Shown: piece after piece, positions 68-50,577 of the stretch
Numbering within the stretch: the first letter of the stretch is position 1
Layout: every line of letters starts with the position of its first letter
Assembly: GCA_021816925.1 (NCBI GenBank)
Contig: JAKAWQ010000009.1
Coordinates: 2,364-66,363 of the forward strand
Reading direction: 5' to 3'
DNA length: 64,000 bases
Source: Pseudomonadota bacterium
GTDB taxonomy: Bacteria; Pseudomonadota; Alphaproteobacteria; Acetobacterales; Acetobacteraceae
Program-made: the position numbers and the translations under genes
Notes under the pieces: model-generated
The model's input: the letters and a program-made list of their open reading frames with translations, nothing else
Database searches by the model: none
What the model was told of the DNA's origin: nothing

Positions 68-2818
68 TCATCGCCGGCTTCGATCATCGCCCCCCTCGTC
101 CACGCCCGCCTCCTCGGCCCCGGCTTCTACCACCGGGAAGACGCTCGTCACGGATTCCCCGTTATCGAGGCGGAACAGCCTCACCCCCATCGCCTGCCGC
201 CCGGTGATGCGCACCTGGTCCGCCGGCACGCGGATCAGTCGCCCGGCATCCGTCACCAGCATCACATCGTCGCCCTCACGCACCGGAAAGCTCGCCACCA
301 CCGCGCGCCCGCTGCGTGCCGAGAGGGCGATATTGGCAATCCCCTGCCCGCCCCGCCCGGTCGTGCGATACTCGTAGGCGGAGCTCCGCTTGCCGAACCC
401 CGCATCCGTCACCGTGAGCAGAAATTCCTCGGTCGCGGCCAGCGCGGCGTACCGCTCTGGCGCGAGCGCAATCCCGGGCGCGCCCTCCTCCCCCTCGGGA
501 GCCTCCTCCCCCACGCCCGAAAGCGCACGCCGCCGTTGTCCGGCCACCCGCACATAGGCCGCCCGCTCCTCTCCGTCCACGGCCACATGCGCGAGCACCG
601 AGAGGCTCATCACCTCGTCGCCGGCCGCAAGGCGGATGCCGCGCACGCCCGGGCTCTCGCGGCCCGCGAACACGCGCAACGTCTCCCCGGTGATCGGAAA
701 GCGCACGCAGCGGCCGAGCCGGCTCGCCAGCAGCACATCCTCGCCCTCCCGGCAGGTGGCAACGCCGATCAGCCGGTCGTCCGCGTCGAGCTTCATGGCG
801 ATCAGCCCGCTTGCGCGCAGATTGCGGAAATCCGAAAGCCGGTTGCGCCGCACATTGCCGCGCGCGGTCGCGAACACGAGATGGAGGTTCTCCCAAAGCG
901 CCTCTTCCTGCGGCAGCGGCAGCACTGCCGTCACGCCGTCGGCGCCAAGCTCGGGCAGCAGGTTGACGAGCGCGCGGCCCTTGGCACCCGGGCCCGCCTC
1001 CGGCAGGCGCCAGACCTTCTCGCGAAACACCTTGCCGCCGCTCGAGAAGAACAGCACCCACTGGTGCGTATGCGCATTGAAGCTGCGCGTGACGATATCG
1101 TCCCCGCGCGTCGTCGCCGCACTGCGCCCGCGCCCGCCGCGGTTCTGTGCGCGGAACGTTTCGAGGGTAGTGCGCTTGATGAACCCCTCGCGCGTGATCG
1201 TCACCACCATCTGGCCGGGTTCGATCAGGCTTTCGTCGTCCGCCTCGGCATCGCCTTCGACGATCTCGGTCTGCCGCGGCGCGGCAATCCCGGCACGCAC
1301 CGCCGCCAGCTCCTCGCGCACCACCTCAAGCCGGCGCGGCCGCGAAGCGATGATCGCCAGCAGCTCGCCGATGCGGGCGGAAACCTCCTTCAGCTCCTCC
1401 TCGATCTTCTCGCGCTCGAGCCCGGTCAGCCGCTGCAGGCGTATCTCCAGGATGCCGCGTGCCTGCGTCTCGGTCAGGTGCACCGTGCCGCCGGCATCGA
1501 TCCGGTTCCCGGCATCCTCGATCAACCCGAGCAGCGGCTCCAGCCCCGCCGCCGACCAGGCCCGCGCCATCAGCGCCGCCCGTGCCGCCGCGCCGTCGCG
1601 GCTGGCGCGGATCAGCGCGATCACTGCGTCGATGTCGCCGAGCGCGATGGCAAGCCCCACCAGCAAGTGCCCCCGCTCTCGCGCGCGCCCCAGCTCGAAA
1701 CGGCTGCGCCGCAGCACCACCTCCTCGCGAAAGGCGAGGAAGGCCGCGAGCGCGTCACGGAGCCCCATCAACCGTGGCTGCCCGCCGTCCAGCGCCAGCA
1801 TGTTCACGCCGAAGCTCGTCTGCAGTTGCGTGAACCGGAAGAGCTGGTTCAGCACCACCTCCGCCGTCGCCTCGCGCTTCAGCTCGATCACGATCCGCAT
1901 GCCGTCGCGGTCGCTCTCATCGCGCAGATCGGAGATGCCCTCGATCGTCTTGTGCCGCACCAGCTCGGCGATCCGTTCGAGCAGGCTCGCCTTGTTCACC
2001 TGGTAGGGAATCTCGGTCACCACGATCGCCTGACGGTCGCGCCGGATCTCCTCGATCATGCTCCTGGCACGCAGGATGATCGCCCCACGCCCCGTTTCGT
2101 ACGCCGCGCGGATGCCGCCGCGCCCGCGAATGAGGCCCCCGGTCGGAAAATCCGGGCCCGGCACCAGCCGCAGCAACGCCTCGAGCGGCGCGTCGGGATC
2201 AGCGAGAAGGGCGAGCGCGGCATCGACGATCTCGCCCGGATTGTGCGTCGGAATGTTGGTCGCCATGCCGACCGCGATACCACTCGCCCCGTTGACCAGG
2301 AGGTTCGGGAACCACGCCGGCAGTACGCGCGGCTCTTCGGCGCTCTCATCGTAGTTCGGCTGGAAATCCACCGTCTCGCGGTCGATATCCTCGAGAAGAA
2401 GGCCCGCCGCGCGCGCCAGCCTGACCTCGGTGTAGCGCATCGCCGCCGGCGGATCGCCGTCCACCGAGCCGAAATTGCCCTGCCCGTCGATCAACGGGAG
2501 CCGCATGGCGAACGGCTGCGCCATGCGCACCATCGCGTCGTAGATCGCCGCATCCCCGTGCGGATGGTACTTGCCCATCACATCGCCCACCACGCGCGCG
2601 GACTTCCGGTACGGCTTGTCCGCCGTGTAGCCCGCCTCGTGCATGGAAAAAAGGATGCGCCGGTGCACCGGCTTCAGCCCGTCCCTCACGTCGGGCAGCG
2701 CGCGCGCGACGATCACCGACATCGCATAATCGAGGTAGGAGCGGCGCATCTCCTCCTCGAGCGTCACCGGCACGAGATGCGAGGGCGGCGGCGCGCCCGC
2801 CTCGGGTCTGTCGCTCAA
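68..2818 (-). CDS. gyrA: DNA gyrase subunit A
   Basis: 916-aa ORF. The N-terminus reads ...[37 protein letters not shown]...[22 protein letters not shown], the GyrA catalytic/QRDR region, followed by C-terminal beta-pinwheel repeats. Confidence 0.97.
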
Positions 2819-2858
2819 GGGCGCCTCGGATAACTCGGATCAGGCGCGATCGGAGCGG

Positions 2859-3353
2859 TCAGAACGGAATCTCGTCGTCGATCTCCCCGCCGGCCTTGCC
2901 GCCCTCCCAGGAGGCTCCCCCGGCGGTCCCGGCGCCGCGCGCCGCCCGCGCCGGGCCGGTACTCCTTGCTTCGGCGCCCTCGCCCGCGCCGCCCGGGGCG
3001 CCGCCGGAATCGAGCAGTGTCAGATCCCCGCGGAAACGGCTGATCACCACCTCGGTCGTGTATTTCTCCTGGCCCGACTGGTCGGTCCATTTGCGCGTCT
3101 GCAACGCGCCCTCGACATAGACCTTGCGCCCCTTGCGCAGGAAGCGCTCAGCCACGTCGGCCAGCCGGTCGTTGAAGATTACCACCCGGTGCCACTCGGT
3201 GCGCTCCTTGCGTTCGCCCGAGGCGCGGTCGTTCCAGCTCTCGCTCGTCGCGAGCGAGAGCTGCACGATCTTCTGGCCCTCCTGCGTTGTCCTAACCTCG
3301 GGGTCCCGGCCGAGATTACCGACGAGAATGACCTTGTTGACGCTGCCCGCCAT
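2859..3353 (-). CDS. ssb: single-stranded DNA-binding protein
   Basis: The ORF track extends to 3479, but the SSB sequence starts at the internal ATG at 3353 ([21 protein letters not shown]...). It has an OB-fold core, a Gly-rich tail and the canonical acidic C-terminus DDEIPF. Confidence 0.95.
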
Positions 3354-20247: not shown

Positions 20248-21128
20248 GACCGCTCGAGCCTGGGGTCGAGTGCGTCGCGCAGCCCGTCGCCCACGAAATT
20301 GAAGCCGCTTACCGCAAGCGCGATCATCACGCCCGGGAAGATCGCAAGCCACGGCGCGGTTACGAGATATTCCTGCGCGTTGTTCAGCATGTTCCCCCAG
20401 CTCGGCGTCGGCGGCTGGATGCCGTAGCCGAGAAAGCTCACATAGGCCTCGAGCAGGATCGCGCGCGCCACGTTGAGCGTTGCCGCAACCACGATCGGCG
20501 CCACGGCGTTGGGCAGGAGCTCGCGAAAGATGATGTGGAAATCCGAGGCGCCGAGCACCTCGGCGGCCAGCGCGAAGTCGCGCTCGCGCAGGCTCTTCAT
20601 CTCCGCCTCGACCACACGCGCGACCTCCATCCAGGCGGTGGCGGCGATCACGAGCGTGATCGAGGCAAGCGTCGGCGTGATAAACGCCGCGAGCGCGAGG
20701 AGGAGAAAAATCTGCGGAAAACAGAGCACCGCATCGACGAAGCGCATCAGCGCCGCGCCCACCGAGCCGCCGAAATAGCCAGCGACCGCCCCGATGAGCG
20801 TCCCCGCCGCCGTGCTGATCAGCATGGCCGCGAACCCGATGGTCAGCGAAACCCGCCCCGCCATCAGGAGCCGCACCAGAAGATCGCGTCCAAGCTGGTC
20901 CGTGCCGAAAAGATGCGGGCCGAGGAACGGCGCGCTGAAGCGCACGCCGAGATCGATGTGCAACGGCCCGTACGGCACCAGATAAGGGCCGAGCCCGCAG
21001 GCTAGCACCAGCAGAAGAACCATCGCGAGGCCGCCGAGCGCCAGCCGATGGCGGCAGAAGCGCCTGAGCGCCCGCTGCCCAGGCCCGGTGCCCGGCGCCG
21101 CTTCGGCGATCCCCGCGGCCGCACTCAT
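20244..21128 (-). CDS. peptide ABC transporter permease (DppC-like)
   Basis: 294 aa, multi-TM, with a binding-protein-dependent permease fold. It overlaps both neighbours by 4 nt. Confidence 0.9.
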
Positions 21129-39744: not shown

Positions 39745-40203
39745 TTACCGGCAGCAGCCCGAGATGCCAGGCTCACAGCACCCGCAACCCATGAGCGCAC
39801 AGCAATCCGTTGCACAGCAGCAATGGCAGCCGCAACCGTATCCGTGTTCACCGCGCCAGCCTTCACCGTGCGGCAACATCTCCGCCGCGCCCCCGAGCGC
39901 GCCCGCACTGCTCGCGAGCACCGCATTGAGGAGTTCGATGCCGAGTCTCACCGTCGTGCCGAGCCCCTCGCCGATTGTGCGCACCCCGCCCGCGCTTCCG
40001 CCGGCCGCCCCACCCGGCGCGCCGAACAGCGCGAGCGAGGGAGGCACCGCCCAACCCGGCATCGCGCCCGGCATCACGCCCCCGGGCGGCATCATCACCG
40101 GCATCATCATCGGTCCCGCTGCCGCCATGCGCGCCTTGTAGCGCGCGAATTCCGCCTCCGCTGCGCTCGAAGGACGTTCCGCACCACCATCCGATCCGCT
40201 CAT
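39745..40203 (-). CDS. novel-operon gene 13: Met/Pro-rich protein with an extreme C-terminal Cys cluster
   Basis: The ATG at 40203 is preceded by GGGAGGGGCGGAG. The product is 152 aa. It has a Met-rich segment (PMMMPVMMPPGGVMPGAMPG), a Gly/Leu amphipathic segment and the tail GCGCHCCCATDCCALMGCGCCEPGISGCCR (12 Cys in 30 aa). Confidence 0.75.
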   Translation of the reverse strand: MSGSDGGAERPSSAAEAEFARYKARMAAAGPMMMPVMMPPGGVMPGAMPGWAVPPSLALFGAPGGAAGGSAGGVRTIGEGLGTTVRLGIELLNAVLASSAGALGGAAEMLPHGEGWRGEHGYGCGCHCCCATDCCALMGCGCCEPGISGCCR

Positions 40204-40219
40204 CTCCGCCCCTCCCTGC

Positions 40220-40798
40220 TCAGCAGCCGCAAATGAAAATCTCGCACCAGCGCACGCGCGCCGTCGCGTTGAGCGCCATCGCGACGAGCTTCGCTCCCGG
40301 CTTGGTCGTGATCACGCCCTCCTTTACGCGATAGGGCGTGCCCGCATTCTCCTGCCGTGCCCATAGCATCGCCGTGCCTTCGCTGTCGGTCACTTCGATC
40401 AGCACGATGAAGGGTTGCGTCGTCACCGACGCCGCGTACTCCACCGAAAGCGAGACACAGCACCCCCCGCCGATGAAGGCGGTGGCGGTCCCCAGGTTCT
40501 GCGTCTGCAGCGCCTGCGGACTCACCTCCGCGCCCGTCGGCTGCACGCGCTCGAGCATCGCCTTCGTCATCGTCGAGAGTTGCCCCACGGCCGCGCCCGG
40601 GGTGGCTCCCGCCGTGTCCCCTTGCTTCGCCGCCGGCTGCACGAGCAGCTCCTTCGCCTCGCGCCTGCACTCCCGGCAGCCGCAGCGGCAGTCCCCGCTC
40701 GGCGCGCCGCAGCGCCGGCAATGCCCCGGTGACCCGTACGTCATCGGTGCCCAGGCGCGCGTGCCCGTGTAGCGGGCCGCCTCGAACGGTCTGAACAT
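40220..40798 (-). CDS. novel-operon gene 12: Cys-rich protein, paralogue of gene 11
   Basis: The ATG at 40798 is preceded by AAGGGAGAGG. The product is 192 aa. It has an N-terminal HCRRCGAPSGDCRCGCRECRRE, a beta-rich core (...VSLSVEYAASV...) and the C-terminus ...NATARVRWCEIFICGC. Confidence 0.75.
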   Translation of the reverse strand: MFRPFEAARYTGTRAWAPMTYGSPGHCRRCGAPSGDCRCGCRECRREAKELLVQPAAKQGDTAGATPGAAVGQLSTMTKAMLERVQPTGAEVSPQALQTQNLGTATAFIGGGCCVSLSVEYAASVTTQPFIVLIEVTDSEGTAMLWARQENAGTPYRVKEGVITTKPGAKLVAMALNATARVRWCEIFICGC

Positions 40799-40817
40799 CG
40801 CAGCCTCTCCCTTTACC

Positions 40818-41219
40818 TCAGCAGCATACCCGCTCGCACCAGCGCACGCGCGCCGTCACGTTCGTCACCGCAAGCGTCACGGTCGATCCCGCCGCCACCG
40901 CACCCAGCCCCTCGTACACATGGTAGCCGGCCGCCGGGCTCGGATCGCTCCAGGTGGTCGCCGTTCCTCCGCTCGAGACAATCGTCACCGTCACCGAGGG
41001 CGTCGTGGCTCCGCTCGCCACCGAATACTCCACCGTGAGCCGGCTTTCTCCCCGGCCGCCCACCATCCCCGAGTTCGTCGGCGCCTTTGCGTCCGCGTCA
41101 ATCTCCTCCACCACCGTCTGCTCGGCCGCGCCCGGCCAGGGCAACACCGGAACCCACATCACGGGATAGCAGCCGCACGGCGGCGGGCCGCCGCATGGCC
41201 TCGGCGAATGCGCGTACAT
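40818..41219 (-). CDS. novel-operon gene 11: Cys-rich protein, paralogue of gene 12
   Basis: The ATG at 41219 is preceded by AAGGAGAGGG. The product is 133 aa. It has an N-terminal PCGGPPPCGC, a core (...SRLTVEYSVAS...) and the C-terminus ...NVTARVRWCERVCC. Confidence 0.75.
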   Translation of the reverse strand: MYAHSPRPCGGPPPCGCYPVMWVPVLPWPGAAEQTVVEEIDADAKAPTNSGMVGGRGESRLTVEYSVASGATTPSVTVTIVSSGGTATTWSDPSPAAGYHVYEGLGAVAAGSTVTLAVTNVTARVRWCERVCC

Positions 41220-41231
41220 CGTCCCTCTCCT

Positions 41232-41432
41232 TCAGCTTTGCGGCGGCTTGCCCGGCGCCGCCTCCGGTTTCGTCAAATCCCGTACGATCCCGAGCACGTC
41301 GTTCACGATTCCGAAGCCTGCGCTGACGAACCCCGTCACACTGTCCGAGATCTTCTGCGGGATCTTGTTGTCGATCAGCGCGGCGGCGGCGTCGTGCACC
41401 AGCTCACCCACCGGTCCCAGGATCCGTGCCAT
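41232..41432 (-). CDS. novel-operon gene 10: small (66 aa) amphipathic protein
   Basis: The ATG at 41432 is preceded by GAGGGAGAAGG. The product is MARILGPVGELVHDAAAALIDNKIPQKISDSVTGFVSAGFGIVNDVLGIVRDL... Confidence 0.65.
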   Translation of the reverse strand: MARILGPVGELVHDAAAALIDNKIPQKISDSVTGFVSAGFGIVNDVLGIVRDLTKPEAAPGKPPQS

Positions 41433-41447
41433 CGCCTTCTCCCTCGC

Positions 41448-42884
41448 TCACGCCCGCGCAGGCGCGGCCATCGCCGCCACTTCGCGCTCGGCGAGCCGGA
41501 GCGCCTTGCTCGCCACTTCAAAGCCCCAGCCGAGCTGCGGCATCGGGTCGCAGAGCGCCGCCCCGCCGGCCCGCGTGAAGCTTTCCGCCGCCCTCCGCGC
41601 GAGACCCCGCTCGCCCTCGTGCCAACGCAAAACCGCTTGCCACGCTCCGAGATCCTTCGGAAACGCCCGCCGGAGCGCCGCCGGCGAAACCGCCAGACGC
41701 TGCGCCAGCACGCCGCTGAACACGCCCGCCGCGAAGGCGCGGAAGCCGGCATCTCCCGCCGTCAGCCGCCCGATCCGCTCCAGCACCAGCAGGCAGAAAT
41801 CGCGGATCGCCGGGTTCTTCGCGATCGTCAGGAAAAGCTCCGCCGTCTGCCAGTCCGCACCTGTTTCACTCTCCCAGAGGCGGCGGTACAGGGCCAGCGT
41901 GCGCCGGGAAAAATCCCCCGCTGCGAACGCCGCTTCCGCCGCCCGCGCCGCATAGAAGGCGCTCTCCATCGCCTTGTGGATGCCGCCGCCGTTCAGCGGA
42001 TCCGCCTGGTTCGCGGCATCCCCCACCAGCATCACCCGCTCATCGAAGATCTTGTCCGGCCGGAAGAACGCCGAAGAGCCGCCGGCAACTGCGCCCAACC
42101 GTTCCGCCCCAGAAAGAACCTCGGCAAGCTCACGCCTCAGAAATCGCCGGAACGTGGCGCCCGGCGCTTCGGGGAGCGGGAAAGCGGGGTCGAGCGCATA
42201 GCCGAGCCCGATATTCGCGAACCCCGTCTCGTCGGCGAAGAGCCACCCGTAGCCCGGAAAATAGGAGCGGTCGAAATAGACCTTGATCGGCGCGCCCTCG
42301 CATTTCACGCCGGTGAAATAGGCGCGTACCGAAACCGCCATCACGCCCGTCTTCAGCCGGTTGCCGATCGCCCGTGACACCGCGGAGGAAACGCCGTCCG
42401 CGCCGATCACGATGCGGCCGCGAAACTCCTCGCTTTTTCCGCCGCTCCTCGCGAACACGCTCGCGTATCCCCGCTCGCGTGACACGCCGCGCACCACCGG
42501 GCCGGCCCGGAATTGCGCGCCGTTGGCAAGTGCATTGCGAAGCAGGATATGGTCGAAGCGCCGCCGGTCGAGCAGCACGGCGAAGTCCGGATAGAGCGTG
42601 CGTTGCGGAAATCCCGCGCTCAGCGTTTTTCTTCCGTTGATGTAAAGATCGCACGCCTTGATGCAGCCCTTGGTCTCGGCCAGCACTTCCTCTGCGCAGC
42701 CGAGCCGGTCGAGCCAGGCGATCGCTTGCGGCGTGAGCCCGTCCCCGCACACCTTCTCGCGCGGGAAGTCCGCCTTGTCGAGAACGAGCACGTCCATCCC
42801 ACGACCCGCAAGAAAGCTCGCGGCCGCGGCCCCGCCCGGCCCCGCACCCACCACGATCACGTCATGCAGGGCCGCCGCGTTCAT
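41448..42884 (-). CDS. novel-operon gene 9: FAD-dependent geranylgeranyl-reductase family (MenJ-like) oxidoreductase with a roughly 100-aa C-terminal extension
   Basis: 478 aa. It has an FAD motif (VIVVGAGPGGAAAASFLAGRGMDVLVLDK) followed by FPREKVCGDGLTPQA, characteristic of the GGR family, then later GDAANQADPLNGGGI. The ATG overlaps the gene 8 stop as ATGA. Confidence 0.85.
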   Translation of the reverse strand: MNAAALHDVIVVGAGPGGAAAASFLAGRGMDVLVLDKADFPREKVCGDGLTPQAIAWLDRLGCAEEVLAETKGCIKACDLYINGRKTLSAGFPQRTLYPDFAVLLDRRRFDHILLRNALANGAQFRAGPVVRGVSRERGYASVFARSGGKSEEFRGRIVIGADGVSSAVSRAIGNRLKTGVMAVSVRAYFTGVKCEGAPIKVYFDRSYFPGYGWLFADETGFANIGLGYALDPAFPLPEAPGATFRRFLRRELAEVLSGAERLGAVAGGSSAFFRPDKIFDERVMLVGDAANQADPLNGGGIHKAMESAFYAARAAEAAFAAGDFSRRTLALYRRLWESETGADWQTAELFLTIAKNPAIRDFCLLVLERIGRLTAGDAGFRAFAAGVFSGVLAQRLAVSPAALRRAFPKDLGAWQAVLRWHEGERGLARRAAESFTRAGGAALCDPMPQLGWGFEVASKALRLAEREVAAMAAPARA

Positions 42885-43549
42885 CCGCTCGCCTCCACCG
42901 AAAGGAGCACAGGAATGCGTATCGTCCCCTCGCCCAGCACCACTACGCTGCCCCGATAGAGATCGGGCGGCAGTGCGTCGGGAATCATTCCTTCCAGCAA
43001 AAATTTCTCGAAATCCATCGGCGCGATCGCGATCTCCGGCGGCGTGACGCCGAGCGCGCCCTCGGGCAAAGTCGCGCCGGTCCGCTCACCCGCGAACGCC
43101 TCGACGAGAAGGCGCACGGGCTTCGCCGCCTCGGCCGATTCGTTATTGATCGAGAATGAAATGCGCACCGCACCGCCGGGCCGGAGCGGCAGGCGGTTGG
43201 TGATGCCGTAGGAGGGCGTCGCCGCGGCCGCGCCGGGCGCCATCGCGGCCAGAGGCCCCGGAGCCGCCGCCCCAGGTGCAACGCCCGGCGCCGCCGGCGG
43301 TTCCTCCGCTTGAGGGCTCAGCATCCGCTCGATGATCTTCGTCTGCGCCGCACTGCCGATCGTGCCGAGCATGGTAAGACCGAGCGAGAGCCCCGCCTCC
43401 GCGAGATCGAGCCCGCGCGCGAGCAACTCCCCGAACCGGTCGAGCCGCGCCTTGAGGTCAAGCGTGTCCTCCGGCGGCTGCGCTGGTGCCGCCTCGGACG
43501 GCGCCGCTCCGCCGGGTGCGGCCGCGCTGCCGTTGCCCCGCTCAGCCAC
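42881..43549 (-). CDS. novel-operon gene 8: hypothetical protein (amphipathic N-region, Pro/Ala linker, beta-sandwich-like C-domain)
   Basis: 222 aa with a GTG start at 43549 that overlaps the end of gene 7 by 8 nt. The C-terminal segment ...AVRISFSINNESAEAAKPVRLLVEAF...YRGSVVVLGEGTIRIPVLLSVE looks like an Ig/CARDB-type beta-sandwich (inference). Confidence 0.6.
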   Translation of the reverse strand: MAERGNGSAAAPGGAAPSEAAPAQPPEDTLDLKARLDRFGELLARGLDLAEAGLSLGLTMLGTIGSAAQTKIIERMLSPQAEEPPAAPGVAPGAAAPGPLAAMAPGAAAATPSYGITNRLPLRPGGAVRISFSINNESAEAAKPVRLLVEAFAGERTGATLPEGALGVTPPEIAIAPMDFEKFLLEGMIPDALPPDLYRGSVVVLGEGTIRIPVLLSVEASG

Positions 43550-43778
43550 GGCACCGGCACCCGTAGCAGGGCGGCTCGCAGCGGATGCACCATTCCTCGT
43601 GCATGCACGGGCGGGCCGGACATTCCAGGCCCCACACGATTCCCTCCGCCGTCTCGCGGATCATGCGCATCTCCCGGCGCGCAAGATGCACCGCCATATG
43701 CCCGAGCCGGACCGCGAGCACCGGCAACACCCCCGCCAGAAGCGCGAGCCCATCCGTCGCCGGCGGCCGACGCCGCAT
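43542..43778 (-). CDS. novel-operon gene 7: small (78 aa) single-TM protein with a Cys-rich C-terminus
   Basis: The ATG at 43778 is preceded by GGGAGG and lies 1 nt after the gene 6 stop. It has a hydrophobic helix (LALLAGVLPVLAV) and the tail ECPARPCMHEEWCIRCEPPCYGCRCRG (7 Cys). It is hidden inside the longer track ORF 43542..44099. Confidence 0.6.
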   Translation of the reverse strand: MRRRPPATDGLALLAGVLPVLAVRLGHMAVHLARREMRMIRETAEGIVWGLECPARPCMHEEWCIRCEPPCYGCRCRG

Positions 43779-43779
43779 C

Positions 43780-44385
43780 TCAGCCTCCCGCCCGATAGGC
43801 AAAGCCGGGCGGGCCGCAGCGCAGCGCGCGCGCCGGCGCCACCGGCACCGCCCGCGCACACCCCTCCTCGAGCCGGCTCGGAATTGCCGGATTGCCGAGG
43901 GCCGCCACATCGGCAAAGCTCCTCTCGTGCGCATGCGATTCCTCGCGCCGCGCGCACTCCCGCGGCACCACCCGCGTCCGGCCCGCGATCTCCACCCGCA
44001 GCACCTCGAAGCCCAGGAGCCGCGCCCGCGCCGTGTATTGCGAAGGCAGATCGAACACCTGATGAATGCCGATCGCGACCGGAGGGATCCGCGTGACATC
44101 GATCTCCACCCCCGGCACCCGGCTCACCGAGAGATTGACCATGGGCAAGCGCGTCACGTTCAGTTGCTCGACATGCAGCGGATCGATTTCCCGCACCCGA
44201 TCGACTGAGAGCGATTCGATCAGCAGCGGCTCGATCTGGTTCAGCTCCTTCACATGCACCGCAACCGGGGCGACCTTCTCGACCGCCGCGATCGTCACCG
44301 GCGCGATGTTGTCCACTTCCTCGATCGTGACCGGATTGAGCGTGATCGGATCGACGCCCGTGACCTGTTTGATATTGACGTCCAC
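43780..44385 (-). CDS. novel-operon gene 6: protein with a periodic V/I-x-P repeat region
   Basis: The GTG at 44385 is preceded by AAGGGAG. The product is 201 aa. Residues about 8-110 form roughly 9 degenerate 11-13-residue units (VDPITLNPVTIEE / VDNIAPVTIAA / VEKVAPVAVHVKE / LNQIEPLLIES ...). Confidence 0.7.
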   Translation of the reverse strand: MDVNIKQVTGVDPITLNPVTIEEVDNIAPVTIAAVEKVAPVAVHVKELNQIEPLLIESLSVDRVREIDPLHVEQLNVTRLPMVNLSVSRVPGVEIDVTRIPPVAIGIHQVFDLPSQYTARARLLGFEVLRVEIAGRTRVVPRECARREESHAHERSFADVAALGNPAIPSRLEEGCARAVPVAPARALRCGPPGFAYRAGG

Positions 44386-44398
44386 GTCTTTTCTCCCT

Positions 44399-45094
44399 TC
44401 AGAGTCCCGGCCAGACGTAATTGAGTACGATCACCTTCGCGGTGTCCGCCACCTGCGGCATGCCCGGGATTTGCACCGTCACACTGTGCTCGGCCGTGCC
44501 GCCGCTCGGCGGCGGCCGATAGAGGAACCAGACTTCGCTGCCCCCCTGCACCGCCCCGTCCACGAGCCAGATCACGCCCGTAGCAGGGCTGTTCCTCGGA
44601 AACGCCCGGAACAGCTGCATCTTGTTCCGCTCGTCGATATACGCATTGTCGTCACCCGAGGCGTAGTAGAGCGTTCGGCTCTTCGGCCAGAGCTCGATCG
44701 TCGGCGCGGGCACGGGCAACGGTCCCACGCCGATGAGCGTCACGAACGCGAACGCCTTGCGCAGCGGATCCGCCCGCGCCGTCGCCACCACGAGATCGGT
44801 GGTGCCGCTGGCAAAGAGCCCCTTGTCCGGCGCCCGATAGAGCCCCGTCTGATCGATCGTGCCGGCCCCCGGCGATCCGTCCGGGGCGATCACCGCGAAG
44901 TTCACGCCGGTATCGGCGTTGCACACGAGAGCCCGGAAGCGGATCTCCGTGTTCGCCCGATCCGTCCAGCGCTCGTCACGGAAATAGAGCTCTGCCTCCG
45001 CCGGCCGAATCTCCACCTCCACGCGGTGCCGCCACACGCCCTCGCGGAGGATACGCCAGTCCTCCCCTCGGCCCGCGTGCACCCGATGCCTCAT
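44399..45094 (-). CDS. novel-operon gene 5: hypothetical protein with an Ig-like segment
   Basis: 231 aa. The ATG overlaps the gene 4 stop as ATGA. The segment ...VNFAVIAPDGSPGAGTIDQTGLYRAPD... resembles bacterial Ig-like (Big) domain signatures. There is no signal peptide. Confidence 0.7.
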   Translation of the reverse strand: MRHRVHAGRGEDWRILREGVWRHRVEVEIRPAEAELYFRDERWTDRANTEIRFRALVCNADTGVNFAVIAPDGSPGAGTIDQTGLYRAPDKGLFASGTTDLVVATARADPLRKAFAFVTLIGVGPLPVPAPTIELWPKSRTLYYASGDDNAYIDERNKMQLFRAFPRNSPATGVIWLVDGAVQGGSEVWFLYRPPPSGGTAEHSVTVQIPGMPQVADTAKVIVLNYVWPGL

Positions 45095-45492
45095 TCCTCG
45101 AACGCCCCCTCGACCGCGGCCTTGAGCAGCCGGCCCGGCACCTCGCCCGTGAGATCGACCTCAACCGTCCCCCGCGCGCTCCCTTCCAGCGCGCATCCGC
45201 CCTCGCCGTCGCCGATCCTGCCCTCCACCCCGACACCGTGGGCGCGGATCGTTGCATTGGCCGGCTTGATATGAATGCGGAACGGACCCACCGATCCCGC
45301 CGCCACGCCCCGCGAGGGTGACAGAAACGGAATCCGCATCAGCAAAGGAATCGCCGCCACCTCGGCCTGAATCGTTCCTGTTGCGATTTCAAGCGCACCC
45401 TCCCCGTTCAGCGCGAAGGAAAGCGGCGCCATCTGCGTGCGCAGCCGGAACTCCGGCGCGCCGGCAAGCGTCACGTGCGCGGCGAATTTCAT
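45091..45492 (-). CDS. novel-operon gene 4: hypothetical protein
   Basis: 133 aa. The ATG overlaps the gene 3 stop as ATGA. I recognise no family. Confidence 0.65.
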   Translation of the reverse strand: MKFAAHVTLAGAPEFRLRTQMAPLSFALNGEGALEIATGTIQAEVAAIPLLMRIPFLSPSRGVAAGSVGPFRIHIKPANATIRAHGVGVEGRIGDGEGGCALEGSARGTVEVDLTGEVPGRLLKAAVEGAFEE

Positions 45493-45683
45493 GGCGCCTT
45501 CTCCTGCGCCTCTTCTCCTCCCTCCGGATAGACGCGCCGCGCGAGGTCGGTGAACATCGCATCCACCGTCTGGTTCAACCGTTCGAACCCGTCCAGCGCC
45601 TTGGCGATCTCCTCGCAGTTCTGCCCCTGCACCTCGAAGTGCACCATCGGCCCGAGGCGGATCGAAAGATTGATGCGCGCCAT
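45489..45683 (-). CDS. novel-operon gene 3: small (64 aa) hypothetical protein
   Basis: The ATG at 45683 is preceded by GGGGAGA. The product is MARINLSIRLGPMVHFEVQGQNCEEIAKALDGFERLNQTVDAMFTDLARRVYP... It is hidden in the longer track ORF 45489..46025. Confidence 0.6.
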   Translation of the reverse strand: MARINLSIRLGPMVHFEVQGQNCEEIAKALDGFERLNQTVDAMFTDLARRVYPEGGEEAQEKAP

Positions 45684-45700
45684 TGTCCCCGTCTCCCCGC

Positions 45701-46291
45701 TCAGCCGTTGCGCCGCCCGCGCCCGGTCTTCACCTGCTGCTCGGCCTCGCGCACCCGCCCGATCAGCAGTTCGAGCGAGGTCAGCACGGTGTCCAGCACC
45801 TCCCGCTCGCGCTGCCCGAGCGCCCGATAGAAGCGCGCCAGCTCCGCCCCGATCTTCCGCCCCTCCTCCGTCTTCCGGTAATCCTTGCCCCGCTCCTGCA
45901 AGACGCTCCCGAACTGATCCAGAACCGAAACCAGCCCGAACAGGAGGTCCGGCCCGGCCTTCGCCTCCGACTTCACCTCCTCGTCCCTCGCCTGGCTCTC
46001 CGGCATCGGCCTGCACCGCCTGCATCTCTTGATCCCGTCCTCAGGCCCGATCCGCCAGAGCCCGTAGGAGGCGGAGCACGCATCCTCGGGAATGGCCCTG
46101 CAGCCGCGCCGGTGCACCACGCCGCGCACGGCATCGAACCGGTAGGGCGCCGCCTCGGTCTCCTCGCGGTTGTCGATCCGAAGGAGCGTGTTCCATTCGC
46201 CGCGCCCCCGTTCCCGATAGAGCGCCTGGATGGCGATCGCCGCCTGCTCGACGAGCGGCCGCCCGCCTTCCCCGCTCATTCCCCACTGCAT
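45701..46291 (-). CDS. novel-operon gene 2: hypothetical protein with a 4-Cys (zinc-ribbon-like) motif and a helical C-terminal half
   Basis: 196 aa. The ATG directly abuts the gene 1 stop (TGAATG). It has CRAIPEDAC...24 aa...CRRC, then a charged helical region (...KDYRKTEEGRKIGAELARFYRALGQREREVLD...). Confidence 0.65.
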   Translation of the reverse strand: MQWGMSGEGGRPLVEQAAIAIQALYRERGRGEWNTLLRIDNREETEAAPYRFDAVRGVVHRRGCRAIPEDACSASYGLWRIGPEDGIKRCRRCRPMPESQARDEEVKSEAKAGPDLLFGLVSVLDQFGSVLQERGKDYRKTEEGRKIGAELARFYRALGQREREVLDTVLTSLELLIGRVREAEQQVKTGRGRRNG

Positions 46292-47212
46292 TCATTCATA
46301 GACATCCCACGCCCCACCGTCCTGCCGCTGCCGGCGATGCTTCTCCAGCCGGGTCGCGTAGTAGCGCCCGAGGAAGCCGAGCAAGAGCGAGCGCCCCGGC
46401 CCCGGCTCGAGACTCGCCTCGATCCGCCGGCGATGCCTCGCGTAGATACGACCGAGTGCGCGCTCCGGAGCATTGAGCCGGTTCATGTATGTCACCCGCC
46501 CCTCCTTGCGGTCGGCGTGGCAGTCGCCGTGATCGTCGATGAACATGATCAGGGCGCCCGCGCTGAAGAGCCCCGCAAGATACGAAAGGGCAACATTTTG
46601 CACAAGGAATATCGCCAGCACCAGGATCGCGTGTCCGCTCCGGTTGCGTGCCGAGCGGCGAAGCACCGCAAGTTCCCGCGCCCGCGTGAGACCCGTCACC
46701 CGCGCCGGCTCGAGCCGCAGCATCACGTCCTCCGCCTGCGCCGCGTGCAGGTGAACGATCGCCTGGCGAAGCAGCGGCGCGAGCACGTCGCGCTCGATGA
46801 ACATGGAGGCCACGATCACGTAGAACAGCCGCTCGCGCGCGTTTCGGATCTCGAACCAGCCGGTTGCCAGCAGCCGCTCGAACCGCGCGAGATACTCGCG
46901 CGCCGCGCTCTCGCCGAAGTCGTCGAGGAAGCTGTCCGCCAGGAAGCAGCAGCAGCCGAACAGGATGGCAAGCCGCCGCCGGCCGGCATCGAAGGTTTCA
47001 CCCGCAATCTCCGTGCAGGCGTGCCCGACCAGCGCCATCTTCGCGCTGAGTTCCAGCATCTTGCGGTATTCCGGCCCGTTCGCGGCCGCCAGTGCCGGGT
47101 AATAGGCCCCGACCAGCGGCGCGAGAACTTCCTTCACCTCGCCGCGATAGCGCCGCGAGAGTTCTTCGAGGCGAGCCGCGTCGGCCCCTTCGCCCGCCGC
47201 CAACCCGGCCAT
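46292..47212 (-). CDS. novel-operon gene 1: helical protein with two Asp-rich motifs (isoprenoid-synthase-like; inference)
   Basis: The likely start is the ATG at 47212, with GGAG 5 nt upstream; the track extends to 47374. The product is 306 aa. It has DSFLDD at residues 93-98 (46919-46936) and DDHGDCHAD at residues 226-234 (46511-46537), about 133 residues apart. Confidence 0.65.
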   Translation of the reverse strand: MAGLAAGEGADAARLEELSRRYRGEVKEVLAPLVGAYYPALAAANGPEYRKMLELSAKMALVGHACTEIAGETFDAGRRRLAILFGCCCFLADSFLDDFGESAAREYLARFERLLATGWFEIRNARERLFYVIVASMFIERDVLAPLLRQAIVHLHAAQAEDVMLRLEPARVTGLTRARELAVLRRSARNRSGHAILVLAIFLVQNVALSYLAGLFSAGALIMFIDDHGDCHADRKEGRVTYMNRLNAPERALGRIYARHRRRIEASLEPGPGRSLLLGFLGRYYATRLEKHRRQRQDGGAWDVYE

Positions 47213-47784
47213 AGCCACTCCGTTCCCCCCGTCCGCTGCTTGCGAGGAGCGAACGCCTCTCTCCCGCGCCGCCACGCCGGCACCGAAACAGAAATTGAGC
47301 TTACGACCGCGCAACCATCGCATGCAACGGAAACCCGCGCTTGCCCGGCAAACCGCCTCCCCCCGGGCGGCCACGCTGCTGGCATGCCCGCTCCGCCGGC
47401 AGATCGAGCGAACGCCGGAGTGCCGTCGCCGCGCTCACCATACCCATGAAATGATGCGTGAAATCATCCGGCCCGTAGCCGCCGAAATCGCCGGGCAGGT
47501 CGGCAAGCCGTGTCTCCGGGCCCGCCAGCCCGCCTGGTGCAGCACGCGACCGCGACCGCACCAGTTACCTTAGCCGACGCAGCGGGCTTCGAGTTACAAG
47601 GGTCTCGCGCGTGCTCTGGTCCCATCGCTGACGCGCGGTGGGACCCTGCGGCTGGTGGCCGGCCACGCGCAAGATCAACGAGAACACCAGCGGCCTCACC
47701 CTCGTTCGAAGAGGCAGGAATTGAAGCCGCGGGTGTGACGCGTCTCACACCGCTCAGCCGCAAGCCCCGCTATTCTCGCGTCCC

Positions 47785-48132
47785 GTGATGCACCCGCCCG
47801 CCGACACGGATCCCGAGAAGGACGCCGCCATGCTTGCCGAGGCCGCTCTCGCCCCATCCCGCCCGCGCACGCTGCCCCCCGGCCTCGCGCGCCTGCCCAC
47901 GGAGCATCTTGCCTTCGCCGGCCGCCTGCTCGCCTTCACCTACGACGATCGCGGCCGCTGCGACGGCTTCGTGCTCGAGCTGCAGGGCGGCGAAGAACGT
48001 TGTTTCGAAACCCGCGAGCCAGGGATCGAGGCCGCACTCCGCCGCGCGCTCGCCTCCGGCGCGCGGATGACGATCCTCACCGCCGCCGCCCAGCCCCGCC
48101 GCCCGCTCGCGATCCTCCCCGGCGAGGACTGA
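47785..48132 (+). CDS. hypothetical protein
   Basis: 115-aa ORF (GTG 47785 or ATG 47788), divergent from the novel operon. It has a plausible globular C-terminal half (...LLAFTYDDRGRCDGFVLELQGGEERCFETREPGIEAAL...). I recognise no family. Confidence 0.4.
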   Translation: MMHPPADTDPEKDAAMLAEAALAPSRPRTLPPGLARLPTEHLAFAGRLLAFTYDDRGRCDGFVLELQGGEERCFETREPGIEAALRRALASGARMTILTAAAQPRRPLAILPGED

Positions 48133-48232
48133 GGCTGCCTTCCCCTCCGCCGGCTCGGCTCGCCTCGGATTTCGTGCTGTGATCACGCGTCGTTCTGCTT
48201 GTTTGTTGCCCGGCGCAAGCGTCTTTCCGGCC

Positions 48233-49003
48233 TCACGCCTCCATCAGGTGGCGGAGAAAGATGCGCGTGCTCTCCTGCCGCGGCTCGGCCAGCACGATCT
48301 CGGGCGGCCCTTCCTCGGCGATCACGCCCTCGTTCATGAACACCACGCGGTCGGCAACGCCCTTCGCGAACCCCATCTCGTGCGTCACCACCACCATCGT
48401 CATGCCGTCCTCGGCAAGCTCGCGCATCACTGCCAGAACCTCGCGCACAAGCTCGGGGTCGAGCGCCGAGGTCACCTCGTCGAACAGCATCACCTCGGGT
48501 CGCATCGCGAGCGCGCGTGCGATCGCCACACGCTGCTGCTGCCCGCCCGAAAGTTGCCAGGGAAAACGGTCGCGGAACCCGGCGAGCCCAACCCGCGCCA
48601 GCACCTCGGCCGCACGCGCCTCCGCCGCCTCCGCGCTCAACCGCCGCACCAGCTGAAGCGCCAACGAAACATTCCGCCCGACGCGGAGATGCGGAAAGAG
48701 GTTGAAGTCCTGGAACACCATGCCGACGCGTCGCTGCGCCTCTGCCGTCGCGGCGCGCGAAAGCCGCGCGGCCGGATCCTGGACGGTCACGCCTTGCACC
48801 CGGATCCTTCCTGCATCGATCCGCGTGAGTCCCGCGACGCACCGCACCAGCGTTGATTTGCCGCTGCCGCTCCGCCCGATCAACACCATCACCTCGCCGC
48901 ACGCCACGCCGAGGTCGATGCCCTTGAGCACCGCCTGCGCGCTGAACGCCTTGCACACGCCTTCGAGCAGGATCGCCGGTCCCTGAGGCCCCGGCCCACT
49001 CAC
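48233..49003 (-). CDS. amino acid ABC transporter ATP-binding protein
   Basis: 256 aa. It has a Walker A motif (GRSGSGKST), a signature motif ([15 protein letters not shown]) and a Walker B motif ([11 protein letters not shown]). The GTG start overlaps the permease stop as GTGA. Confidence 0.93.
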
Positions 49004-49668
49004 GTCACGTGGAACCGCCGCTCGACCGCGCTCGAAAGCAACGACAGCGGATAGGTGAGCAGGAAATAGACCACCGCGAGCGCCGTATAGAACTCGAACG
49101 GCCGGTAGGTCTGCGCCACCGCCGCCTCGGCGCGGTAGGTCATGTCCGCAACCGCAATGATCGAGACGAGCGAGGAATCCTTCACCACCACGATCAGCAC
49201 GTTGACCACCGCCGGCAGCACGCGCCGGAGCGCCTGCGGCACGATGATATGCAAGAGCGCCTGCGCGCGCGAGAGCCCCAGTACCTGCGCCGCGTCACGC
49301 TGCCCCTGCCCGATCGAGACCAGCCCGCCACGGAAAATCTCGGAAAGAAAGGCACCGCTGTTGAGGCCGATCGTCAGCACCCCGGCCATCCAGGCCGAGA
49401 GATTGATCCCCGAAAGCACCGGCAGCACGTAGAACACCCAGATGAGCTGCACCAGGATGGGTGTGGTGCGGAAGAAATCCACGTAGGCATAGACGAGCTG
49501 CGAGGCGACCGGCACCTTCGCCGCGCGCGGCACCGCGGTCGCAAGCCCGAGCGCAAGCCCGAGTGCCAGCCCCGCGAACGACACCTCCGCCGTGATCGCA
49601 ACGCCGTTCCCGAAGCTCGCCAGCGTGTGGGCGTTGAAGACGACCGCCCAGTCCCACTTGTAGGCCAC
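49000..49668 (-). CDS. amino acid ABC transporter permease (His/Glu/Gln/Arg/opine family)
   Basis: 222 aa, multi-TM, with the segment ...[17 protein letters not shown]... and an EAA-like loop. The GTG start is preceded by GGAGG. Confidence 0.9.
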
Positions 49669-49725
49669 CCCGGCGCCTCCTTCGCGCCGCGCCTTGCGCA
49701 GCCCCGCCGGCGGACCTTTCCGGGC

Positions 49726-50577
49726 CTAGGTTCCGAGCCCGGAGTTCGCCGGCGTCACCTCTTTCGCATAGAGCGCCGCAACCGCGCCGCTCTTGTTCTC
49801 TTTGGCGAGGAAGCTGTTGAGCGCCGCCAGAAGCTCGGGATCGCTCTTGCGCACGCCCCAGGCGACCGGCGTCGCATTCACGCCTTCATCCGTGTCCGGA
49901 ATCGCCCGCGCCCAGGAAAACTTGGCCAGGATCGGCCGGCGCAGCGTGCTCGTGATCGCGAAGGCGTCCGAGCGGCCCGACACCACTTCGGCGACGAGAT
50001 TGCCGACGCTCGAACTCAAGAGCCCGCGCTCCTTCGCCTTCGGCAGGAGCTTCCGCGTGATCTCGCCCTCGATCGTGTTCTGCGTGAAGGCGACGGTGAC
50101 GTTCGGGCTGTCCAGGCTAGCGAGCGAGTCGAGCTTCTTCGGATTGTCCTTGCTGACGATGAAGATCTGCCCCGCCTTGAAATAGGGCACCGTGAAGTCG
50201 ATCACCTCCTTGCGAAGTGCGGTCGCCGAAATCGAGGCACCGATCATGTCGTACTTGTGTGCCAGCAGCCCGGGCACAATCGTTGCCCAGGTCGCACCCA
50301 CGAAGTCGATCTTGACCCCCCACTCCTTGCCCAGCATGCGCACAAGGTCCGGGTTGAAGCCGTACCACGTGCCGTTCGTGTGCTGCAGCACCATCGGCGG
50401 ATTGAGCGCCATCGCGACCCGCATCAGCCTAGTGCGCCTGATGCGCGCGAGCGCGCCTTCCGAGGCCGCTGCGCGCGCCGGCCCGGCGGTGAACACCGGA
50501 GCCAACGCGCCTCCGCCCGCGATCAGCCTGAGCGCTTGCCGGCGTGTCTTCACTGAAAGGTTCCTCTCTCGCGTCAT
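49726..50577 (-). CDS. amino acid ABC transporter substrate-binding protein (family 3) with a Tat-like signal
   Basis: 283 aa. The N-terminus ...KTRRQALRLIAGGGALAPVFTAGPARA is a twin-arginine signal, followed by an SBP_bac_3-type body. Confidence 0.9.
   Translation of the reverse strand: MTRERNLSVKTRRQALRLIAGGGALAPVFTAGPARAAASEGALARIRRTRLMRVAMALNPPMVLQHTNGTWYGFNPDLVRMLGKEWGVKIDFVGATWATIVPGLLAHKYDMIGASISATALRKEVIDFTVPYFKAGQIFIVSKDNPKKLDSLASLDSPNVTVAFTQNTIEGEITRKLLPKAKERGLLSSSVGNLVAEVVSGRSDAFAITSTLRRPILAKFSWARAIPDTDEGVNATPVAWGVRKSDPELLAALNSFLAKENKSGAVAALYAKEVTPANSGLGT

Follow-up and report, generated by a model that had tools for sequence, protein, structure and literature searches.

An unannotated protein family with a predicted class I isoprenoid-synthase fold in a conserved 13-gene bacterial operon

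Few enzyme families have been mined as heavily as the class I isoprenoid synthases, and this mining relies on hidden Markov models (HMMs). The metal-binding motifs of these enzymes sit on helices D and H (PMC10563020). For bacterial type I terpene synthases, the hallmarks include a DDXX(X)D motif and an ND(L,I,V)XSXX(K,R)E triad about 140 residues apart, a sensor Arg 46 residues upstream of the triad, an Asn 8-9 residues downstream of it and a C-terminal RY pair with a Trp six residues upstream (PMC8450962). Other enzymes of the isoprenoid-synthase superfamily, namely ComQ, PalQ and the P domain of ChrPC, move C5-C20 prenyl groups onto adjacently encoded ribosomal peptides (PMC10853753; PMC13290415). 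A conserved Gln immediately upstream of the second Asp-rich motif (SARM) marks the known Trp-prenylating enzymes and is linked to Trp recognition, and modification of Cys is known for no enzyme of the peptide prenyltransferase fold that resembles trans-IDS, the trans-type synthases of isoprenyl diphosphates (PMC13290415). Here we describe g1, the first gene of a 13-gene operon (g1-g13) in a stretch of 64,000 nucleotides (the window) from contig JAKAWQ010000009.1 of an Acetobacteraceae genome (assembly GCA_021816925.1). The family to which its product belongs is invisible to the isoprenoid-synthase HMMs used for mining.

Based on a structural model and on the conservation of two Asp-rich motifs, we consider it likely that the g1 protein is soluble, adopts the class I isoprenoid-synthase fold and is competent for catalysis, and that it founds a family that no curated database recognises. 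The predicted fold provides a first biochemical handle, a prenyl diphosphate plus Mg2+, on a widespread operon that is otherwise 'dark'.

Motifs, predicted fold and conservation of g1

The gene occupies 46292..47212 and, like the whole operon (~39745-47212), lies on the minus strand, to which all window coordinates below refer unless stated otherwise. A first-pass annotation, made from the letters of the sequence, described a largely helical protein of 306 amino acids (aa) with two motifs, DSFLDD (motif 1, residues 93-98, 46919..46936) and DDHGDCHAD (motif 2, residues 226-234, 46511..46537). Both the translation and the structural model agree with this description, and the spacing, put at about 133 residues, is 133 from D93 to D226. 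Motif 2 can be read as DDxxD and also as an all-Asp form of (N/D)Dxx(S/T)xxxE. The ATG at 47212 is preceded by a purine run, GGGGGGAACGGAG, and the N-termini of homologues, which are 305-316 aa long, align near it; upstream, the frame stays open as far as a GTG at 47374.

The pairing of the two motifs is not a chance or composition effect. The six frames of the window contain 136 stop-free stretches that reach 200 aa or more; of these, g1 alone combines an Asp-rich motif with (N/D)Dxx(S/T/D)xxx(E/D) at a distance of 110-160 residues. Shuffling the protein reproduced both motifs in 3 of 20,000 trials, and 7 of its 13 Asp residues fall within motifs 1 and 2.

The AlphaFold2 (AF2) model of g1, built on a 35-sequence alignment, is all-helical, with 13 helices, a mean predicted local distance difference test score (pLDDT) of 91.9 and a predicted template modelling score (pTM) of 0.90. 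When this model was compared with the Protein Data Bank (PDB) using Foldseek, all of the top 50 matches had the class I isoprenoid-synthase fold (prob 1.00, TMq up to 0.62), which supports, at the level of the model, the class I reading put forward in the first-pass annotation. The lowest E-value was obtained for Escherichia coli farnesyl diphosphate (FPP) synthase (1rqi, 7.6e-4), and other matches included FPP, geranylgeranyl diphosphate (GGPP), solanesyl, octaprenyl and decaprenyl diphosphate synthases. Also in the top 50 were the CrtM-like 8is8 and a dehydrosqualene synthase, with the head-to-head class at ranks 5, 11, 28 and 38, as well as type I synthases of sesqui-, di- and sesterterpenes from bacteria and fungi. 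The highest TM-scores were to actinomycete pimarane-type diterpene synthases, 7e4n (Sat1646, 0.62) and 7e4o (0.61); LrdC, BjKS, CyS and SmTS1 were also among the best-scoring bacterial type I diterpene synthases.

Motif 1 closes the fourth long helix of the model (residues 76-97) and motif 2 closes helix 209-229, each at the C-terminal end. By order and length these helices correspond in the model to helices D and H, and the topology predicts that the motifs line a pocket, as would be expected for the Asp-motif placement of a class I enzyme. The protein has one strongly hydrophobic window, residues 195-213 (Kyte-Doolittle (KD) value 2.18), which is the single clearly hydrophobic stretch already remarked upon. 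We rejected a UbiA-type membrane prenyltransferase with 7-9 transmembrane helices, an identity doubted from the outset, because the model is a soluble bundle with a single hydrophobic segment and no UbiA structure occurs in the top 50. The fold of CaaX-type protein prenyltransferases was likewise not among the listed Foldseek matches.

To assess conservation we used 55 full-length, gap-free orthologues from 58 genomic loci, which comprise metagenome-assembled genomes (MAGs) and isolates labelled as many phyla. Six Asp residues (D93, D97, D226, D227, D230 and D234) are present in 55/55, and all six lie in the motifs singled out at the start. The same is true of C89, G193, R239, T241, Y284, R288, K291 and W302, and S94, R191, H228 and N244 are each found in 54/55. 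Slightly less constant are D98 (53/55), R189 (52/55), C88 (52/55) and C231 (50/55), and position 283 is Arg in 43 and Lys in 12. The annotation had also drawn attention to the CCC triplet of LFGCCCF (residues 84-90) just before motif 1. This holds for C88 and C89 (46946..46951), which stand four and five residues ahead of the motif; it does not hold for C87, which is Cys in 9/55 and Gly or Ala in most.

Several of the conserved residues have candidate counterparts in known enzymes. The stretch R189-N-R191-S-G193-H194 (46631..46648), on helix 177-203, carries candidates for the diphosphate-sensor Arg (R189/R191) and for the helix-G effector (G193). N244 (46481..46483), ten residues past D234, is a candidate for the Asn that follows the NSE motif of type I terpene synthases, and R283-Y284-Y285 (46358..46366), conserved on the last helix, resembles an RY pair. 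The C-terminal tail AW(D/A)VYE (46295..46312) is conserved, with W302 invariant, yet disordered (pLDDT ~52 for the last residues). One may speculate that it is a docking or targeting peptide.

This conservation could alternatively reflect a protein that is not an isoprenoid enzyme at all, such as a non-catalytic helical bundle that serves as a metal-binding or scaffold subunit of an assembly formed by the operon, with its Asp, His and Cys residues holding a structural or sensing metal. Numerous charged residues are invariant, which suggests that the protein makes extensive contacts with other proteins; the disordered tail looks like a docking peptide, the conserved H228, C231, C88 and C89 lie beside the Asp motifs, and metallothionein-like Cys tails abound in the operon. 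We nonetheless regard such a role as highly improbable. The invariant set of class I catalytic type, six Asp plus several Arg, Lys and Tyr residues, is hard to explain without diphosphate and Mg2+ chemistry, and a genuine enzyme of the geranylgeranyl reductase (GGR) family is co-conserved in 39 of 42 loci.

In sequence space the family stands apart. More than 348 homologues were found, every one labelled 'hypothetical' and without a Pfam domain, and g1 itself has no match in Pfam (E<=0.1), NCBIfam, PADLOC or PHROGs. A profile of 35 aligned family members (A1), run with HMMER against 1.84 billion representatives at 50% identity, retrieved one essentially full-length cluster, fragments and two weak remote matches, and gave no bridge to known families. 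Because so exhaustive a search yields so little else, the g1 family is, by sequence comparison, a tight island. Within it, orthologues under different phylum labels are 46-80% identical. A plasmid collection contained no homologue.

The two remote matches, P0163 and P0164 (~195 aa, AT-rich, without a Pfam domain), are weakly related to the C-terminal half of g1 and carry FQxIDDxxDxxxD...(Y/V)xNQ. P0164 has an unrelated neighbourhood, with NUDIX and PRPP synthetase genes alongside. In two further database proteins, P0139 and P0136, the final 85-120 residues of g1, starting at ...FIDDHGDC, are joined to unrelated N-termini; errors of assembly or gene calling could account for these proteins, as could recombination.

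The operon and its GGR-family member

Of the 13 operon proteins, only g9 (41448..42884) matched a family in scans of Pfam, NCBIfam, PADLOC and PHROGs; the other 12 are without one. It scores 197.2 bits against TIGR02032 (cut-off 158.8), and its best match among PDB sequences is a Thermoplasma lipid reductase of the GGR type (3oz2, 1.1e-24, residues 6-338). By these matches g9 is a genuine GGR-family flavoprotein, and the link to isoprenoid chemistry that had been drawn from it stands. It shares with 3oz2 the CG(D/E)GL Cys motif (VCGDGL/RCGEGL) and the GYxW(L/V)F...G(L/I)G stretch (GYGWLFA..NIGLG/GYIWVFP..NVGIG), and differs from it by ~140 extra C-terminal residues. Flavin-dependent halogenases are near-equal to the top match (3e1t, 9.4e-24), and QhpG/LodB-type Trp-modifying flavoproteins also match, below their cut-offs. 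Full-length g9 occurs in 39/42 loci and a tandem duplicate in 10/42 (for example L001, 14695-17704); in locus L022 (~15265) a 55-aa remnant is left. In place of KVCGDGL some copies have TVRCDGL, with the Cys shifted, or TVRSDGL.

In 38 of 60 related loci the 13 genes occur in the same order; these are the loci that extend as far as g13. Members of the g1 family occur in no fewer than 58 genomes and MAGs and nearly always head this cluster. As recorded, the labels of the carriers include Alpha-, Beta- and Gammaproteobacteria, many Nitrospirota, Nitrospinota and Methylomirabilis, together with Desulfobacterota, Acidobacteriota, Actinomycetota and Calditrichota; cultured carriers are Caulobacter sp. 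BK020, Paraburkholderia panacisoli DCY113 and Nitrospira sp. T9. Literature searches on terpene synthase, GGR and Cys-rich clusters, on Nitrospira and on structure-based discovery found no description of the cluster.

The closest neighbour of g1 is g2 (45701..46291), which on its sequence has an N-terminal part with four Cys (C...C...CxxC) and a helical C-terminal part, 196 aa in all. Its ATG follows directly on the TGA of g1, in frame (46289-46294), and it adjoins g1 in nearly all related loci. The in-frame junction, a 461-aa database protein (P0122) that runs g1 into g2, and a locus that holds these two genes only (L041, 1029-2616) together suggest that g1 and g2 are a functional pair. The exception to their adjacency is L026, a MAG contig labelled Gammaproteobacteria, where g1 lies ~2.7 kb downstream of g12 and does not head the cluster.

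The remaining genes are g3 (45489-45683), g4 (45091-45492), g5 (44399-45094), g6 (43780-44385) and g7 (43542-43778), all conserved; g8 (42881..43549); and g10 (41232-41432), g11 (40818-41219), g12 (40220-40798) and g13 (39745-40203). The proteins g3-g6 have no match in the four collections named above, and for g7, whose start is uncertain and whose C-terminus is Cys-rich, the L001 orthologue was scanned against Pfam with no match. Comparison of g5 and g6 with PDB sequences gave nothing relevant. Sequence and synteny define g8 as a protein of 222 aa in which an amphipathic helix, rich in Gly and Ala, leads into a C-terminal domain rich in beta structure. We treat g10-g13 as candidate acceptors or structural proteins; g11 ends in RVRWCERVCC, g12 in RVRWCEIFICGC, and g13 has a Cys-rich tail ending in GCCR. 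Among the operon proteins a strongly hydrophobic stretch was found in g1 and g7 only, with g10 marginal, and an obvious signal peptide in none.

Genes flanking the cluster differ from locus to locus. In L001 the cluster lies between a DDE transposase remnant and a phage-type integrase (2634-3083; 20468-20933). The variable flanks and these remnants suggest that the operon is a self-contained module that moves horizontally. In the window, a gap of ~1 kb (47213-48232) separates g1 from amino-acid ABC-transporter genes upstream (48233-50577, minus strand) and holds a 115-aa plus-strand open reading frame (47785-48132). The gap contains no sigma-70 consensus match and no Rfam match, and scanning the surroundings of the operon for promoters, terminators and Rfam families gave nothing informative. 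Prenyl synthase genes were found neither in the window nor in the 60 loci, and Pfam and NCBIfam scans of the cluster revealed neither P450s nor methyltransferases, nor any other of the genes that usually tailor terpenoids.

Proposed chemistry and the fate of the prenyl chain

Judging from fold and motifs, g1 is very probably a Mg2+-dependent enzyme that ionises a prenyl diphosphate. We propose that D93/D97, perhaps with D98, and D226 (D227)/D230/D234 would hold a Mg2+ cluster, and that this cluster would bind the diphosphate of an all-trans prenyl diphosphate, probably C15-C20. The chain would come from the cellular FPP/GGPP pool, because the cluster encodes no chain-elongating enzyme. The basic residues R191, R239, R/K283-Y284, R288 and K291 could help to bind and release the diphosphate, and ionisation would generate an allylic cation in the hydrophobic core of the protein. 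The enzyme would act within the conserved 13-gene cluster, where g9 would saturate double bonds of the chain. In sum, the operon probably marks an undescribed isoprenoid-dependent system.

Several observations weigh against a catalytic class I enzyme at the head of this system. Motif 1 is DSxxDD and not the canonical DDxxD. The Foldseek E-values are modest, at ~1e-3, and TM-scores range over 0.5-0.62. At E<=10, Pfam gave scattered single matches only across the 35 aligned members; searches of PDB sequences with g1 alone and with profile A1 found nothing relevant; and hhalign aligned A1 to E. coli IspA over 17 columns at a probability of 0.1%.

The fate of the cation may be sought among the other products of the operon, whose C-terminal motifs we compared across ~40 loci. 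The g11 proteins end in ...ARLRWCExxCC and the g12 proteins in ...ARVRWCEVFSC, at times with an additional C or GC; the invariant R-W-(C)-E of both stops 7-8 residues short of the C-terminus. In g13, ...P(S/G)VGxCC follows a Cys run like that of metallothioneins or keratin-associated proteins, and g7 has ...CEPPCYGC... near its end. The -CC/-CXC ends of these proteins resemble Rab prenylation signals. According to its AF2 model, g12 begins with a CxxC...CxCGCRxC knuckle (invariant C27, C30, C39 and C44), continues through a variable linker into a beta-sandwich (residues 100-187, pLDDT ~90) with invariant FIGGGCC and RxRWCE strands, and ends in five unstructured residues, the terminal Cys tail. 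Foldseek found generic likeness of g12 to jelly-roll, CBM, C1q/TNF and tail-knob structures, none below E 1e-3.

For the cation itself we lean slightly, and tentatively, towards capture by a nucleophile on an operon protein, that is, prenyl transfer of the ComQ/PalQ kind. The Cys exposed at the end of the invariant ...RWCExxCC and ...RWCEVFSC tails of g11 and g12 would be the likely acceptor, perhaps together with those of g7 or g13. Arguing for this possibility are the extreme conservation of g1, set against fast-evolving terpene cyclases, and its many invariant polar and charged residues together with the conserved disordered tail. The lack of tailoring enzymes, the invariant C-terminal Cys/Trp motifs in the operon, the unstructured last five residues in the g12 model and the precedent of ComQ, PalQ and ChrPC point the same way. 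Identities of 46-80% across phylum labels, within what is essentially one full-length cluster at 50% identity, would fit an enzyme that docks with partner proteins.

Counter to protein transfer, the Gln that precedes the second motif in Trp-prenylating enzymes is replaced by Met/Phe in g1. In L018 and L048, g11 lacks C-terminal Cys while RW-E is kept. Moreover, RVRWCE forms the last beta-strand of the g12 sandwich, so the conserved Trp is not at a free end, and the invariant Cys residues of g12 (C113, C114, C185 and C190) might just as well make up a metal or disulfide site. In addition, the cluster of L047 (15985-16542) lacks g9, and in L041 unrelated genes lie downstream of an isolated g1-g2 pair. 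More generally, the Cys motifs of the operon proteins could equally serve metal binding or cross-linking.

A more elaborate picture, which we think unlikely though worth stating, is that the operon is a bacterial protein-prenylation system that builds a lipid-anchored intracellular shell or body. On this picture g1, possibly with the Zn-ribbon-like g2, would put a C15-C20 chain on the C-terminal Cys of g11 and g12 (-CC/-SC/-CGC) or on the neighbouring Trp. The Cys-rich tails of g7 and g13 might also be acceptors, and g9 would saturate the chain. The lipidated jelly-roll proteins would then assemble with g3-g8 and g10.

The consequences depend on the product. If the acceptor is a protein, bacteria and a new enzyme fold would join the known range of protein prenylation; if the modification is S-prenylation, g1 would be the first S-prenylating enzyme of the class I fold and part of the first endogenous bacterial protein-prenylation machinery. 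If the product is a free lipid, the family would represent a new clade of terpene synthases, accompanied by an unusual set of proteins.

Comparison with known isoprenoid enzymes

Compared with trans-isoprenyl diphosphate synthases (IspA/FPP synthase 1rqi, PF00348), g1 has two Asp motifs at comparable positions, a perfect DDxxD as its second motif and the lowest Foldseek E-value. It differs in having MFI instead of FQ ahead of DDHGD and a first motif that is not DDx2-4D, and the Lys/Arg-rich motifs of the isopentenyl diphosphate (IPP) site are not recognisable in alignment A1. With head-to-head synthases (CrtM, squalene and phytoene synthases, PF00494), g1 shares the i/i+4 pairs D93/D97 and D226/D230, whose spacing of ~125-135 residues resembles that of the DxxxD motifs in those enzymes; it differs in the missing PF00494 match, and there is no evidence for a second prenyl site. 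PF00348 and PF00494 gave no match to g1 (E<=0.1) and none to the 35 family members at E<=10.

These likenesses raise the alternative of a condensing enzyme, which would either elongate a chain with IPP or join two chains head to head, the long product then being reduced by g9. The lowest Foldseek E-values, to FPP, GGPP, solanesyl and octaprenyl diphosphate synthases and a CrtM-like enzyme, are in keeping with it, as are the DDxxD and DxxxD readings of the motifs. In trans-prenyl synthases chain length is set four and five positions ahead of motif 1, where small residues allow long products; g1 has the small C88 and C89 at these textbook positions. In the weak remote relatives P0163 and P0164, FQxIDDxxD matches what prenyl synthases have in the SARM region. 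Condensation is in our view improbable, given the absence of any PF00348 or PF00494 signal, the empty hhalign comparison with IspA, the replacement of FQ by MF before the second motif and the unrecognisable IPP site.

Bacterial type I terpene synthases such as Sat1646 (7e4n) share with g1 the all-alpha class I fold, a size of ~300 aa and the best TM-scores. For the motifs of this class, selinadiene synthase is the reference. The first Asp motif is on the helix-D equivalent and the second lies 133 residues on, at the helix-H equivalent, a spacing typical of bacterial cyclases. Motif 2, as DDxxDxxxD, is NSE/DTE-like, and the RY-like pair on the last helix (R/K283-Y284), the Asn soon after the triad and the R-x-x-S-G stretch resemble the hallmarks of this class. 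A possible identity for g1, though short of a probable one, is that of an ordinary type I terpene synthase or cyclase, which would ionise and convert FPP or GGPP to a free hydrocarbon or alcohol that g9 partly saturates and that the other proteins bind, coat or use.

The differences from this class argue against that alternative. The Asn (N244) stands 10 residues after the triad, a near match to 8-9, and R189 and R191 lie 37 and 35 residues before it, followed by S192-G193, where the sensor Arg of terpene synthases lies at 46. The residue at -6 of the RY pair is Leu instead of Trp, Pro/Leu anchors before motif 1 are absent, motif 1 is DSxxDD and the triad is all-Asp, and none of the bacterial terpene-synthase HMMs in Pfam and NCBIfam matches g1. 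Terpene cyclases normally diverge fast, whereas g1 remains highly similar across phylum labels. Finally, the 13-gene operon does not look biosynthetic: it lacks a prenyl-diphosphate synthase and tailoring enzymes and encodes mostly small, structural-looking, Cys-rich proteins.

The peptide prenyltransferases ComQ, PalQ and ChrPC bear on the transfer to an operon protein that we tentatively favour. Like them, g1 is co-conserved with proteins that have an invariant Trp (and Cys) near the C-terminus. It differs from them in the absent pre-SARM Gln, as M223-F/Y/H224-I225 precede D226 in all aligned members, and in an operon without protease or exporter. The candidate acceptors here are folded proteins of 130-190 aa, with the Trp in a beta-strand, and not short precursors of peptides that ribosomes make and that are modified after translation (RiPPs); the acceptor residue, if any, may be Cys. 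Across all of these comparisons, the g1 model shows the features of the fold superfamily (IPR008949-type), a helical bundle with both Asp motifs at the ends of the D- and H-equivalent helices, and no sequence-defined subfamily claims it. On the evidence of this model, g1 is a new, unannotated sequence family inside the known class I fold.

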